A stretch of DNA of 64,000 nucleotides from Desulfurococcales archaeon (GCA_027022365.1 JALVYU010000011.1:64001-128000), one strand, 5' to 3'. Shown: positions 23,731 through 28,480, numbered from the stretch's first letter. A program made the numbers and translations. The notes: generated by a model not told the origin, from the letters alone.

Positions 23731-23808
23731 GGGCCCGTAGCCTAGCCTGGATAGGGCGCCGGCCTCCGGAGCCGGATGTCCCGGGTTCAAATCCCGGCGG
23801 GCCCGCCA
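23731..23808 (+). tRNA. tRNA-Arg(CCG), intronless, CCA encoded
   Basis: Acceptor GGGCCCG/CGGGCCC, anticodon arm CCGGC-CTCCGGA-GCCGG, T arm CCGGG-TTCAAAT-CCCGG, ends GCCA. Confidence 0.97.
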
Positions 23809-24009
23809 CTGATCTCAGACTTTTTCATAATTTTGTTTAATCTTGAAGAAAACTTCAATGTTAAGATGCATGACCTAAATTTCTAGGGTTTTTCTTGCTT
23901 CTACTAGGTAGTATGGCCAGAAAGCAAGCCACTTATTGAGGAGAATCTCTAATTCAACGCGCAGATAACTACTGTACTTCCTAATCTCATTTACTGGTGG
24001 TAGATAGCG

Positions 24010-24246
24010 TTAGAGTGCATTTTGCTTCAACAGTTTCTGTCCCTTCTTAGTATTGCGGAGCTTGGGGTCTAAGCCTTCATCAACTATAACTATCTTTGCG
24101 CCAGTAGTATAGAGTAGCTCATTGTATACTATCATGGGAATCGCCATACCTTCAACAATTGCTTCCATGATAACCTTCTCTGAGGCGCTTGTTAGCTCGG
24201 TCTCGAAGAGGAAGCTATAGATGATGTTCGTGTCAAGACATATCAT
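24010..24246 (-). pseudogene. Truncated VapC/PIN toxin
   Basis: ICLDTNII..IPMIVYNELLY PIN N-terminus but only 78 aa; the C-terminal acidic motifs are missing. Confidence 0.75.
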
Positions 24247-24452
24247 TGAACCTGAGCCTCTTCTTCGAGCTCCTGGAACTCCTCGATAGAGGATTTCCCG
24301 AGAATGCCTCTGTACTTTTTGATTAGCTCGTCTATATCCCTTTCCACTATAACCTTATACTCCTTGCCCTCCTCAAGGTCTATACTGCCCAAAGGCCTCA
24401 GCACACCCTTCTCGTACCTCACACGTATAACTTTATACAACTCCATCCCCAT
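24243..24452 (-). CDS. Antitoxin, DUF104/AF2212-like family
   Basis: KVIRVRYEKGVLRPLGSIDLEEG; ATGA overlap with the PIN gene. Confidence 0.88.
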   Translation of the reverse strand: MGMELYKVIRVRYEKGVLRPLGSIDLEEGKEYKVIVERDIDELIKKYRGILGKSSIEEFQELEEEAQVQ

Positions 24453-24575
24453 TCATACACTAGATACATTGGGCCAATTAGCCTTTTCCTGTATGGGTGT
24501 TTTCCAGATTATCCTCTCTGACATTCAATATGGATAATCTTTTGTGGAGGGTGTTTCCATTTCATGATTTCATCC

Positions 24576-24646
24576 GGAAACATTGTTCTTATATCCCAGG
24601 CCTTCGGAGCCGGATGTCCCGGGTCCCGAATCCCGGCGGCCCGACA
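24576..24646 (+). repeat. att-like repeat 1: GGAAAC..CTTATA arm plus tRNA-Arg 3' half copy
   Basis: GGCCTTCGGAGCCGGATGTCCCGGGTCCCGAATCCCGGCGGCCCGACA aligns to tRNA 23761-23808. Confidence 0.9.
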
Positions 24647-24776
24647 CTAAGTTTTAGTGTGTTAGTAAACATTATTCATTATAGTCTTCAGTGTATGCTT
24701 TAGGACAGTAGATGACAAAAGATATGTGATGTAGGAATGTTGATAAGATTCTATCTAATACTATGTAGGATGAGGG

Positions 24777-25001
24777 GTGCTGGTATTGTCTGAGGTAGTT
24801 GTTAAGGTGCCTAGGGGTGTTGATGCTGAGAAGGTTAAGCGTAGGATCGAGGCTATTCTTGACCTTGTGATTAGCGATGAGTTTGACAAATTCATGGAGT
24901 ACTTAGAAGAATACGCTCTCCTACGTCTTCAAGAAGAAAGTCTTCGGGAATTTCTAGAGGATGAGCCGGATGTCTACACCGAGGACGACATTAAAAGGTA
25001 A
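24777..25001 (+). CDS. Small acidic antitoxin partner of PemK/MazF toxin
   Basis: 74 aa, acidic C-terminus (EESLREFLEDEPDVYTEDDIK), overlaps the downstream toxin gene. Confidence 0.75.
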   Translation: MLVLSEVVVKVPRGVDAEKVKRRIEAILDLVISDEFDKFMEYLEEYALLRLQEESLREFLEDEPDVYTEDDIKR

Positions 25002-25341
25002 GATAGTGCTCATCTATTCCCCCTTCACCGACCTAACGGGTAGAAAGCTCCGGCCAGCACTAGTACTCTATGATAGTGGTAAAGATGTCGTTGTTGCATT
25101 CATATCCTCAAAGATAGAGAAATACGAGCCTGAGACCGATATCCTGATAAGTAAATCACATCCGGAGTTTCATCTCACCGGGCTTAAAACAGACTCAGTA
25201 TTGAAACTCTCAAAAATAGCCACCCTATATAAGAGACTAATAGCAGGAGAATTAGGCACCATAGGTGAGCAACTAAGAAATGAGATAAACCAGAAAATAA
25301 TAAAAATAAATATTATTAGTATAAACTCAGAGAAGACCTAG
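24961..25341 (+). CDS. PemK/MazF family toxin
   Basis: GKIVLIYSPFTDLTGRKLRPALVL, VAFISS, TGLKTDSVLKLSKIATL, GELG. Confidence 0.88.
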   Translation: MSRMSTPRTTLKGKIVLIYSPFTDLTGRKLRPALVLYDSGKDVVVAFISSKIEKYEPETDILISKSHPEFHLTGLKTDSVLKLSKIATLYKRLIAGELGTIGEQLRNEINQKIIKINIISINSEKT

Positions 25342-25501
25342 CATTATCAATAAAATTATTGCACGCTTTAAAACACTTATATCTAGTAAAACTTCAATAT
25401 TACCCAGCGCCTCCTAAATCTTTATGAAGATGTGTTTAATACTAGCCCATTCATACCTGAGTATAAAATGTAACTATTTACCCAGGTCATAATTAATTCT
25501 T

Positions 25502-25572
25502 GGACGTTTCCTTATAGGATCTGGTCTTTGGAGCCAATGAACCTCGGATCCATAATCCCGGCGGGCCCGCCA
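25502..25572 (+). repeat. att-like repeat 2: GGACGTTTCCTTATA arm plus tRNA-Arg 3' half copy
   Basis: The last 19 nt AATCCCGGCGGGCCCGCCA are identical to the tRNA 3' end; the anticodon-side part is diverged. Confidence 0.88.
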
Positions 25573-25624
25573 CAATGTATTTCTATTATTGTTTGTTTCA
25601 GGATGGGATACGGATAAGTAGTTT

Positions 25625-26526: not shown

Positions 26527-26594
26527 GGACGTTTCCTTATAAGTGTCGGCCCCGGAGCCGGAGATCCCGGGTCCAGAATCCCGGCGAGCCCACC
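26527..26594 (+). repeat. att-like repeat 3: GGACGTTTCCTTATA arm plus tRNA-Arg 3' half copy
   Basis: CGGCCCCGGAGCCGGAGATCCCGGGTCCAGAATCCCGGCGAGCCCACC aligns to the tRNA 3' half; the 15-nt arm is identical to repeat 2. Confidence 0.9.
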
Positions 26595-26693
26595 CTTTTA
26601 TTCAATGAATTGTTTTGTTCTATGATAGAGAGACGTTGTGTTTGGGGAGAGGTTAAGAGGCCGGGAGGACGTAATGTGATTTGGTGAGGGATT

Positions 26694-26974
26694 ATGCCTT
26701 GTGTTTTGAAGCTCCCTCTTTCTAGGAACGCGGTGAAGAAATTGTTCGGTTCTTGGAGGGCGAGCATATCTAAAGGGTCTGGAGGACGTGCTTAGCCAGT
26801 ATTCTGAGAGGGTTGAGGAGGACATACTGGAGGATTTCCTAAGGGAGAGGAGGTAGCCCCGTGGGATCGAACCTGGTTGTCGACGTACTAGTCTTAATAT
26901 ATTCTTCTCTTCCACAAAAGAAGTTATATGATTACCCTGATTATATACGGTTGTATATGGTGGGTAACTCATAG
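26694..26974 (+). pseudogene. Decayed VapB-like antitoxin plus PIN toxin remnant
   Basis: Frameshifted small ORF ending LKGLEDVLSQYSERVEEDILEDFLRERR* (26856), then GTG at 26861 giving MGSNLVVD(TS), a PIN-like start that stops at 26974. Confidence 0.5.
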
Positions 26975-27028
26975 TTTAACTATGAAATCATATTGGTTCA
27001 GACTCCTGTAATTAGACATAGTTATAGA

Positions 27029-27396
27029 CTAGTGCTGCAAATGTTGGTCGTAGATCTCTATGTATTCATGCTCTATGACTATGAGTAGCCCGGGCTTAGG
27101 CTCTAGCTGACTGGCTATTGAGGCTATTCTCTCAGCCAGTCTTGGTATCTCGTTTTTGGAGGGCTGGTAGGAAATATAGATTACTCCATTCTTCGCTAGA
27201 GATAAAAGGCTTGGTGCTGTAAAGTCGGTGTCTCTCGTTAATATTGTCATTCCAAGCTCGCTTGCTGTATTAACTAGCTCCTTATCACTAATATCTCGGG
27301 TACCTAGATCTTGTAGACGGGCAACATCTATACTTTTCTGCCTCAAGAAGATTACCAGCTTTTAGGTATGTTTTCATCAGCCAGAAGCCTCAGCAA
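27029..27396 (-). pseudogene. DUF5615 (VapC45-like PIN) toxin, frameshifted near N-terminus
   Basis: TTG at 27396 gives MLRLLADENIPK, then a 1-nt deletion in the A-run (27360-27363). The rest (ISDKELV..TILTRDTDF..GVIYI) is in the 27029-27346 ORF. Confidence 0.8.
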
Positions 27397-27622
27397 CCAC
27401 TATAACTCTCTTCAGCGCCTTAGATGCAAACCTCAATGCTTCACATACAGCTTCCACCAGTATATCAAACTCCTCAGCAACCTCCTCGGGTTTCCAACCA
27501 GCAGCAAGCATATCTAGAATATCATCAACAGATACTCTTGTACCCTCCACAGTAGGCCTACCACGCCTACCAGGCACTATTTCAAGCCATTTATAACCAG
27601 GCAAGAGAACCATACCAGCCAC
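27377..27622 (-). CDS. DUF433 family antitoxin (VapB45-like)
   Basis: IVPGRRGRPTVEGTRVSVDDILDMLAAGWKPEEVAEEF. Confidence 0.9.
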   Translation of the reverse strand: MAGMVLLPGYKWLEIVPGRRGRPTVEGTRVSVDDILDMLAAGWKPEEVAEEFDILVEAVCEALRFASKALKRVIVVAEASG

Positions 27623-27849
27623 CGCTAAGCAATACTACCAAGAAAGGTTCTTTTATATTCTCAGCCCGAAGACTAGAATTAATCCCGGTTTCTAGTCTCA
27701 ACATTATTTCCCACGGATCAATTTCCAGGACCCTACATCTTCCATCTCATTAGCAGTCCTAAAATACTTAGACAGCCCTATTAACCATAAACAAACTCTC
27801 GTAATAATCTTCCTTGTCCACAGTCTTTTAGTTCCTCGTAGATAAATGG

Positions 27850-28088
27850 CGCCTAGCTAAAAAATCCTTAGCTCAGATAAGTTTAAAGTCTCTACAGTTA
27901 CAAAACCCCTTCAGATACTCAAACGAGCTAATAGTCCTTGGTGGGCCTAAGCCATGTTTTTCTCATCGTTTATTGTTCTAAGACTAGTGTAGACTTCATC
28001 ACTACCGGATAAAAATGTTAATGATTAGATCTGGCTTCGGCCTTATATCATGTAACAGGTATATTGGAGCGTTGGTGTCGACGTACAT
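27850..28088 (-). pseudogene. Decayed VapC/PIN toxin
   Basis: ATG overlapping the antitoxin stop gives MYVDTNAPIYLLHD..., then stops and frameshifts (EVYTSLRTIN in another frame); the 3' limit is approximate. Confidence 0.6.
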
Positions 28089-28300
28089 CAAAGATGCTCG
28101 GCCTCTTCTATCGCCTCCTCTAGGAGCTCTGGATTCACACGGCCCAAAACGCTTCGATACCTCTCCAGTATTCTTCCACTCCCTCCTATATTGATTATCT
28201 TGACAAGAAGCCCTTTGTTCTCATCCATGACAAGCGGCTCCTCAGGCGCCAGCACACCGCCCCTATATCTTACTCGGATGATCTTGGACAATCCTTGCAC
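28088..28300 (-). CDS. Antitoxin, DUF104/AF2212-like family (paralog of 24243-24452)
   Basis: KIIRVRYRGGVLAP..ILERYRSVLG..EEAIEEAEHL. Confidence 0.82.
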   Translation of the reverse strand: MQGLSKIIRVRYRGGVLAPEEPLVMDENKGLLVKIINIGGSGRILERYRSVLGRVNPELLEEAIEEAEHL

Positions 28301-28428
28301 CCGCCTAGTCTTACCAATAATTAACCAATTAGCTCTTCCTCAAGGAAGTTACTAGGTTATCATAATGGATGCCGGTCTCGGTGGTAATTGGTTTTGTGTA
28401 GTGTTTCCCGGTATAATGTTTTTCCTCT

Positions 28429-28480
28429 GGAAACCCAGCTTATAGATTCTAGGACCCAGATCCTGCTGTCCCGGGCTAAA
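28429..28480 (+). repeat. Degenerate att-like repeat (distal island boundary)
   Basis: GGAAAC..CTTATA followed 22 nt later by TGTCCCGGG (21 nt in repeat 1); the upstream spacer is homologous to that before repeat 1. Confidence 0.55.

Follow-up and report, generated by a model that had tools for sequence, protein, structure and literature searches.

A series of toxin-antitoxin (TA) genes follows the tRNA-Arg(CCG) gene of a hot-vent Desulfurococcales archaeon, and direct copies of the 3′ part of that tRNA divide the series into short intervals. This array occupies positions 23,731 to 28,480 of the 64,000-nucleotide stretch analyzed here (GCA_027022365.1 JALVYU010000011.1:64001-128000), which we call the window and whose coordinates are used unless a contig is named; genomes are designated by G numbers, the present one being G000 (99.97% complete, 44 contigs). 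We regard it as probable that the locus consists of non-autonomous TA mini-cassettes, accreted at the tRNA by a helix-turn-helix (HTH) integrase of larger elements acting in trans and then left to decay. A cassette would be one self-contained type II TA operon plus a right end of ~105 nucleotides (nt), without an integrase, and an HTH/SSV-family integrase encoded by ~9-kb elements at the same tRNA would recombine the cassette site with the tRNA 3′ part. Each arrival would restore the tRNA and push older units outward, creating a head-to-tail array, with the TA pairs making the units hard to lose. A palindrome in the right end would probably be bound by the HTH domain of the integrase.

The array behind tRNA-Arg(CCG)

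The anchoring tRNA is the only one that ARAGORN finds in the window, and the gene for a 503-amino-acid (aa) methionyl-tRNA synthetase (MetRS, metG) lies directly upstream of it. Direct copies of its 3′ part are located at 24599-24646, ~25519-25572 and 26547-26594, successive starts being 838, 925 and 1023 nt apart. A repeat profile built from 30 tRNA-Arg copies and run on a 22-kb stretch recovered them with E values of 7.6e-23, 4.1e-19 and 5.3e-20, respectively, so the three copies that a preliminary description of the locus had listed as ending at 24646, 25572 and 26594 are well supported. That description also proposed two weak boundary copies. The one near 28480 is marginal (28421-28477, E = 0.025, 9.1 bits), having a recognizable inverted repeat and TATA-like box and a core truncated by the end of a flavodoxin-like gene, while near 27700 the same search gave no match even at E ≤ 50, leaving four of the five boundaries supported, one of them weakly. 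The copies within the array are imperfect, 66-85% alike, and in all three clear ones the T loop is one base longer than in the tRNA (TCCNNAAT versus TTCAAAT). An intact tRNA with direct 3′-part copies bounding the inserted DNA is the pattern of tRNA-anchored elements. The features of the array, with open reading frames (ORFs) and strands, are listed below.

23731-23808, +: tRNA-Arg(CCG), the intact attachment target on the attL side of the array (ARAGORN; Rfam tRNA, 64.5 bits)
23809-24646: interval 1, 838 nt, a composite unit (Pfam; tblastn with the G019 methyltransferase and the G032 PIN; profile)
~23878-24102, −: methyltransferase 3′ remnant, residues 153-227, interval 1 (tblastn)
24010-24246, −: ORF with a PIN 5′ fragment (residues 1-59) fused to the methyltransferase remnant, interval 1 (tblastn)
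24243-24452, −: AF2212-like (DUF104) antitoxin, interval 1 (Pfam)
~24553-24598: right arm of interval 1, inverted repeat GTTTCCA..GGAAAC and TATA; core at 24599-24646 with a TCG-type anticodon loop
24647-25572: interval 2, 926 nt, right arm ~25478-25518, core ~25519-25572 (profile)
24777-25001, +: putative antitoxin, 74 aa, interval 2
24961-25341, +: PemK/MazF toxin, interval 2 (Pfam PemK_toxin, 1.3e-11)
25573-26594: interval 3, 1022 nt, right arm TGCCCCA..TGGGACG and TATA ~26502-26546, core 26547-26594 (profile)
25625-25999, −: TumE toxin, interval 3 (Pfam TumE, 5.5e-12)
26006-26266, −: 86-aa partner of TumE, interval 3
26595-28480: distal composite interval, ~1.9 kb (Pfam; frame translations; weak profile match; orthologous 1782-nt interval in G004)
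~26700-26900, +: decayed vapBC-like remnant reduced to a stump, distal interval (frame translations)
27029-27346, −: DUF5615, distal interval (Pfam)
27377-27622, −: DUF433, distal interval (Pfam)
~27640-28087, −: frameshifted PIN remnant, distal interval (frame translations)
28088-28300, −: AF2212-like antitoxin, distal interval (Pfam)
28421-28477: degenerate arm and truncated core at the end of the distal interval (profile, E = 0.025)
28476-28937, −: flavodoxin-like gene at the distal edge of the array (Pfam Flavodoxin_5, 3.8e-9), common only to G004 in genus-wide DNA searches

Pfam matches and frame translations agree with the TA gene content first described for these intervals and add to it the methyltransferase 3′ remnant of interval 1. 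As in type II TA loci, small antitoxin genes adjoin toxin genes of known families, here AF2212-like/PIN, PemK, TumE and DUF433/DUF5615, assigned by sequence family. The 74-aa and 86-aa antitoxin candidates of intervals 2 and 3 match no family in Pfam or NCBIfam, and an NCBIfam scan of the window proteins added a weak TumE match only. No match to the integrase families PF00589 and PF16795 exists on the window's contig, including 23809-28480, so the earlier statement that no integrase is visible holds and the ~1-kb units contain no integrase fragments of these families. An antisense 'PPGFEPG...' frame over the tRNA was rejected as an intN fragment; it is the tRNA read backwards, and the frame starts at the tRNA's own end. 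Not all intervals are simple cassettes. Interval 1 is evidently a deletion product, a methyltransferase/PIN fusion, with the methyltransferase intact in the related G019 unit and more complete in G004. The distal 1.9 kb, to judge from its three TA remnants and one lost repeat, is a deletion product as well.

The metG-tRNA-Arg locus was compared across the genus, and, as expected for mini-cassettes, its TA content differs and the breakpoints lie inside repeats. The radical-SAM/metG/tRNA block is matched in all five other genus genomes, and homology with G001, G002, G003 and G005 stops at 23808-23810, the 3′ end of the tRNA; with G004 it reaches 24105 inside interval 1, beyond which G004 has further methyltransferase gene sequence. 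The tRNA is followed by membrane-protein ORFs in G001 and by a 196-aa and a 178-aa ORF in G002, neither of the latter two like the window cassettes. The G005 array begins with another PIN unit, continues with a permease-bearing unit of 2.4 kb and then has interval 3 of the window, 91% identical over 25527-26575, from repeat 2 to repeat 3, among other neighbors. G004 has the distal 1.9 kb at 89-92% identity behind a unit of another palindrome type, with the break at 26551, four bases into repeat 3. In G032, from another family, relatives of intervals 1, 5 and 4 (counting five intervals, as many as the preliminary description lists) occur in that order with 86, 78 and 79% nucleotide identity, and its antitoxin is 84% identical versus 32% for its MetRS. 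Judged from these alignments, single cassettes are common to related species in differing orders, and homology breaks inside the repeats.

MetRS proved a poor yardstick of divergence for distant families, because their MetRS is a different, longer type (32% identity). The gene at 22181-23692 encodes the short, 503-aa form, whose identity falls from 91% within the genus to 66% within the family and to only 31-32% against the 570-593-aa forms of G013 (same family) and two other families. On its other side, the variable region runs past the array through 28938-31957. It includes an 852-aa Thr/Ser-rich membrane-anchored protein (29212-31770, −) with no match in the five other genus genomes at E ≤ 1e-20, and a perfect 17-nt tandem duplication at 29168-29201 (TCTTAATAAAAAATAAT, two copies), which is present as a single copy in contigs of the public runs X3 and X5 and is therefore polymorphic. 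Synteny with G004 and G005 is back from ~31957, at a 398-aa membrane protein with 72%-identical paralogues in G001 and G003.

The repeat unit, its recurrence and a candidate integrase

Alignment with copies at tRNA-Arg genes of related genomes shows that each copy is a unit of ~105 nt, starting ~45 nt ahead of the tRNA-like core. An inverted repeat, with arms of 6-8 bp that are ~15 nt apart, is followed after 3-4 nt by a TATA-like box (TTTATAAG or similar) and, after ~5 nt more, by the tRNA from anticodon stem to acceptor end; the inverted repeat and TATA part precede the core in all three clear window copies. Palindromes of the types GTTTCCA..TGGAAAC, TGTCCCA..TGGGACA and GTTGCA..TGCAAC occur, with TTTCCA, GTCCCA and TTGCAT as arm hexamers, and a perfect palindrome of at least 6 bp is present in 89 of 132 distinct full-length copies versus 8.3% of shuffled sequences. 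Because the symmetry is kept while the letters vary, a dimeric binding protein or a hairpin is indicated.

The unit is found throughout the order. The scan of related genomes that the preliminary description had called for was made with a profile of the repeats (model R1) on 151 genomes of the order; the best 150 matches were listed and 3320 more lie beyond them, so the following counts are lower bounds. At least ~69 of the best 150 are full-length matches (palindrome, TATA and core), and at least 28 of the 151 genomes, belonging to 11 of 13 families, have the unit at tRNA-Arg genes, where it bounds single-TA intervals. We then consider 62 intervals from 25 loci in 19 genomes, chosen from the best model R1 matches and not at random. 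Their sizes are 841-1024 nt in 28 cases, at most 1262 nt in 34 and more than 2.2 kb in seven. The largest ORF is a PIN protein (PF01850) in 30 intervals, DUF5615 in three and TumE in two, with PemK, HEPN, nucleotidyltransferase and HicB-like antitoxin among the further ones; the second ORF is AF2212-like in 15, DUF433 in three and a HicA toxin once, many second ORFs being spurious overlaps.

The palindrome and TATA-like box might be taken for the promoter of a TA operon, a reading that we reject. Relative to the tRNA, 49 of the 62 intervals have their largest ORF in antisense and 13 in sense orientation, and the right end is unchanged either way; since the place of the unit relative to the core is constant whatever the gene direction, including in the 13 opposite-facing intervals, it is part of the site and not of the operon. 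The GTTTCCA type goes mostly with AF2212-like/PIN units, and the TGTCCCA type goes alike with PemK, TumE, HEPN/MNT, DUF433/DUF5615 and HicAB units. One palindrome type thus serves unrelated TA families and is not the operator for one particular antitoxin. Interval 3, moreover, has its own TATA-like box ~30 nt before the start codon.

A scan for the C-terminal motif of the cassette PIN proteins over 185,579 species genomes gave 174 relatives, with 79 loci kept. These are almost all in metagenome-assembled genomes labelled Desulfurococcales, Desulfurococcaceae, Acidilobaceae, Pyrodictiaceae, Ignisphaera, Staphylothermus, Desulfurococcus, Zestosphaera and the like. Of 73 testable loci, 43 have a repeat at most 400 nt past the PIN stop, the distance being mostly 104-160 nt; a repeat at most 700 nt ahead of the PIN start is present in 43 of 71, and repeats occur on both sides in 32 of 65. 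The anticodon loop comes from another arginine isoacceptor than the heading tRNA in 11 of 99 array copies; repeat 1 of the window, with its TCG-type loop behind the CCG tRNA, is of this kind.

An integrase is found at the same target. In G077, the 9-kb interval directly after tRNA-Arg(CCG) opens with a decayed 'archaeal phage integrase' gene (PF16795, 3e-20), which has relatives in 52 of the 151 genomes at E ≤ 1e-5. Intact relatives of ~435-445 residues combine an N-terminal HTH with an SSV-family catalytic domain (PF16795), and among solved structures the best matches are three chains named 'Probable integrase' (E ~2e-6). Of 28 distinct integrase places, 21 have a complete tRNA immediately ahead of the gene and on its strand (Arg in nine, Gly in seven, Ser in four and Asp in one, loci L151-L170 and L062-L071 included); in the other places there is a tRNA 3′ part at the contig end (two), a full cassette-type repeat ahead of the gene (one), or none or none that can be judged (four). 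Subfamilies of this integrase probably differ in tRNA target. The gene starts 30-180 nt past the tRNA, on the same strand, and is therefore not split on integration, unlike the integrase gene of classic SSV elements. In the short spacer that separates it from the tRNA there are a TATA-like box and palindromes of the cassette kinds. No relative emerged when IMG/VR viral contigs were scanned with the integrase alignment.

What ties this enzyme to the cassettes is the right end. Three ~9-kb integrase-first intervals, in G077, G031 (9.2 kb) and G089 (9.5 kb), end in the palindrome/TATA/core unit, and the TA units therefore share both right end and target with integrase-encoding elements. In essence, they have an end in common with an autonomous element and lack its enzyme. 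The defence-like cargo of the G031 and G089 intervals comprises a restriction-modification fusion, an AAA ATPase with a ribbon-helix-helix protein, and a PIN fragment. From this sharing of site and end we infer that the units are moved by such an integrase; its action in trans, the contact between HTH domain and palindrome, the crossover point, and the addition of units one by one are parts of that same proposal, whereas what is observed is the anatomy of the units, their recurrence, their cassette-wise mosaicism, and an integrase that shares both target and right end with them.

The genome contains further elements of both kinds, all on contig C26. A 4.1-kb element at tRNA-Val(GAC) (534271-538416, L060) has perfect 53-bp direct repeats and a 301-aa SSV-type integrase frame, whose span appears to reach the distal repeat, judged from frame length and the position of the Pfam match; if the frame crosses the repeat, this appears to be a classic split-integrase insertion, and it looks recent. 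A 14.6-kb element (511669-526336, L059) joins tRNA-Ala(GGC) to a perfect 43-nt copy of the 5′ part of that tRNA, with a PF16795 integrase (365-aa frame) just inside the copy; its target is therefore the 5′ half of the tRNA. Downstream of tRNA-Val(CAC) lies a second TA array (621880-623625, L025) of two ~0.8-kb units, with a DUF5615-like ORF in each and a DUF433-like one also in the second, named by their likeness to the window pair. These units end in 40-45-nt copies of tRNA-Val(CAC) from the anticodon loop on, preceded by TGTGTTCT and not by palindrome and TATA, and the array is a second, independent case in this genome. Behind tRNA-Arg(TCG) (162403-163470, L061), one 0.99-kb AF2212-like/PIN-type unit, again named by likeness, has the full palindrome/TATA/core end and is followed by two large ORFs of 284 and 240 aa. 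The repeats are perfect at the elements with an integrase and worn at the TA arrays.

Evidence for and against accretion in trans

Several observations weigh against cassettes moved in trans. The genome does contain tyrosine recombinases, as the preliminary description suggested should be looked for, namely the apparently split SSV-type enzyme at tRNA-Val(GAC) and the PF16795 enzyme at tRNA-Ala(GGC), but it has no close homologue of the tRNA-Arg-type integrase, the best match, 30% identical, being the former. PF16795 has no match in the complete array-bearing genomes G033 and G135 either. Palindrome hexamers number 20.1 per kb in the right arm, 1.06 in the interior and 0.5 at left ends; they are not enriched at left ends, and the cassettes are therefore one-armed. 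A search for the palindrome on both sides of the cassette accordingly failed, at least two hexamers occurring in the first 160 nt in just one of the 62 intervals, and left ends are alike to a limited extent, with two recurring motifs in nine of 62 intervals each. Matching palindromes on both arms of each integrase element, likewise sought, were present in one of three. The drawing of the interval sample from the best matches must be counted here too. Finally, no movement of units is seen in the contigs of four public runs. Those contigs do include joints at repeats, from 24623 to 25554 (skipping 930), from 24613 back to 23779, and from 23798-23809 to ~26970-27018; their shorter sides have 21-32 letters at 90% likeness and may stem from the arrays of other organisms, and they are therefore not taken to show excision or circles. 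The lack of a close integrase homologue implies that the array is frozen and eroding, and signs of erosion are present as imperfect repeats, two broken PIN toxins and one deleted repeat.

The strongest competing explanation is that single units never move. Here, elements of 4-15 kb with their own integrases would have entered the tRNA successively and eroded to the TA pair near the right end, which would be retained since its loss is selected against. Captured elements are known from published work to decay at archaeal tRNA genes (PMC3119797), and the methyltransferase/PIN fusion of interval 1, which speaks against our reading, would fit such erosion, as would the distal 1.9 kb with its three TA remnants and lost repeat. 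So would the weak integrase remnants in the 2.8-kb interval of G032 and next to the tRNA in G017, and the PIN fragment just inside the right arm with which the 9.2-kb G031 interval closes; given the G031 fragment and the G032 remnant, some intervals may indeed be stumps of larger elements. Independent deletions should, however, leave ragged sizes and left ends, yet 28 of the 62 intervals fall within 841-1024 nt, the distance from PIN stop to repeat is mostly 104-160 nt across many genomes, and unrelated TA families sit in the same small frame. Near-identical single units also recur at different array positions across families with homology ending at the repeats, and the window units are without integrase fragments. 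Erosion in place thus explains the decay and not the narrow size mode, the uniform PIN-repeat spacing or the sharing of units across families, and we consider it unlikely as the account of the whole, though clearly the first among the alternatives.

Another possibility dispenses with site-specific recombination, invoking unequal crossing-over or homologous recombination between the ~100-nt repeats after ordinary DNA uptake. In length the repeats would suffice for this, and they are frequent contig break points in related genomes. Genomes that lack the integrase retain arrays, and G020 has the interval 3 TumAE operon at 81% identity in a stretch in which the profile found no repeat. Repeats only 66-85% alike within an array would nevertheless be a poor substrate; CCG-tRNA arrays with TCG- or GCG-type loops, and the reverse, cannot all be local duplications, and the same right end closes integrase-first elements at the same tRNA, all of which makes this account improbable. 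Less probable by far is that the repeats are genes or signals, such as promoter-driven 3′ halves of split tRNAs or small RNAs on TA pairs, and not scars of recombination. Its appeal lies in the TATA-like box ~5 nt ahead of each core and in promoter-bearing split tRNA halves known in this order (PMC3218864). The present genome has split-looking tRNA-Lys halves of its own: contig C7 has a 5′ and a 3′ half on one strand, separated by 3.8 kb with the 3′ half first (151904-151934 and 155753-155797), which resemble the split tRNA-Lys(CUU) reported from Staphylothermus (PMC3218864). Against this reading, no matching 5′ half was found for the array copies, each copy carries its own set of T-loop and acceptor-strand mutations, Rfam matches nothing on the array but the true tRNA, and the unit marks interval ends irrespective of gene direction.

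Accretion of mini-cassettes in trans therefore remains the reading that we favor. The tRNA-anchored mini-cassettes envisaged in the preliminary description are supported by their recurrence, their mosaicism, the absence of integrase fragments and the candidate integrase family at the same target elsewhere; that interval 1 and the distal 1.9 kb are deletion products is a caveat.

Related systems and significance

Integrons are head-to-tail cassette arrays and include the TA cassettes of Vibrio superintegrons. The array resembles them in its head-to-tail small units of about one gene or operon, in end sites with palindromic symmetry, in TA cassettes, and in an order that differs between relatives. 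In contrast to integrons, it has no IntI gene and attI beside it (no PF00589 or PF16795 match on the contig, and metG upstream of the tRNA). Its sites are tRNA-derived, with a TATA-like box and a separate palindrome of 6-8-bp arms, in place of attC hairpins, the imperfect palindromes that recombine as folded single strands; its anchor is a tRNA gene, its cassettes appear to have their own promoters, and its candidate recombinase is an SSV-family integrase encoded elsewhere. As an analogy, the likeness to integrons is functional only. Streptococcal cis-mobilizable elements (CIMEs) are integrase-less derivatives of integrative elements that undergo tandem accretion. They share with the TA units the nature of non-autonomous, att-flanked units, standing in tandem with or replacing an integrase-bearing element at one site and depending on its integrase, but the window-type units are archaeal, ~1 kb in size, hold a TA pair only, number up to five or more per array, and have no conjugation genes. 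Miniature inverted-repeat transposable elements (MITEs) are miniature non-autonomous derivatives of transposons and similarly keep only ends recognized by an enzyme supplied in trans; unlike them, the TA units are proposed to integrate site-specifically into a tRNA gene, not to transpose, and they carry coding cargo.

Among archaeal elements, those of the SSV and pNOB8 types have a tRNA 3′-part target, a PF16795 integrase domain and degraded remains at tRNA genes (PMC3119797, PMC7253208), and an apparently classic split-integrase example is the element at tRNA-Val(GAC) in this genome. The integrase linked to the TA units differs in not being split on integration, and 23809-28480 contains no intN or intC pieces of a self-splitting gene. 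According to PMC7253208, tandem insertions of split-integrase elements were never observed. Islander-type tRNA-gene islands (PMC4383910) are likewise marked by an intact tRNA and, at the opposite end, by a tRNA fragment that has been displaced; they are usually many kb long with their own integrase, whereas most of the TA units are ~1 kb and have none.

Archaeal elements that target tRNA genes and decay there are already known, as are integrons and tandem integrase-less elements. For archaeal TA-only arrays of ~1-kb units with a tRNA-derived, palindrome-bearing end, we found no description in the open full-text literature searched. We tentatively raise the possibility, for which we would claim somewhat less than even standing, that such 1-kb 'miniature integrative cassettes' are a distinct, order-wide class of archaeal mobile element. 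Each would consist of one defence or addiction module and a one-armed site read by an HTH/SSV-family integrase from passing plasmid-like elements, and tRNA-Arg genes, together with tRNA-Val here, would serve as integron-like platforms in hyperthermophilic Thermoprotei, collecting, reordering and exchanging TA modules between families.

The spread of TA pairs among hyperthermophilic archaea is poorly understood, and most accounts record no more than their enrichment in 'variable regions'. The cassettes offer a testable vehicle for it, with a ~105-nt end, the tRNA-Arg 3′ part as target and a named candidate enzyme family, and they account for assembly breaks at tRNA-Arg in these organisms. Model R1 is at the same time a marker for exchangeable defence modules in metagenomes, and, if the palindrome is an integrase arm site, the unit would provide a compact substrate for studies of SSV-family recombination at high temperature. 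Such arrays would be the archaeal counterpart to integron arrays and to the bacterial accretion of integrase-less elements.

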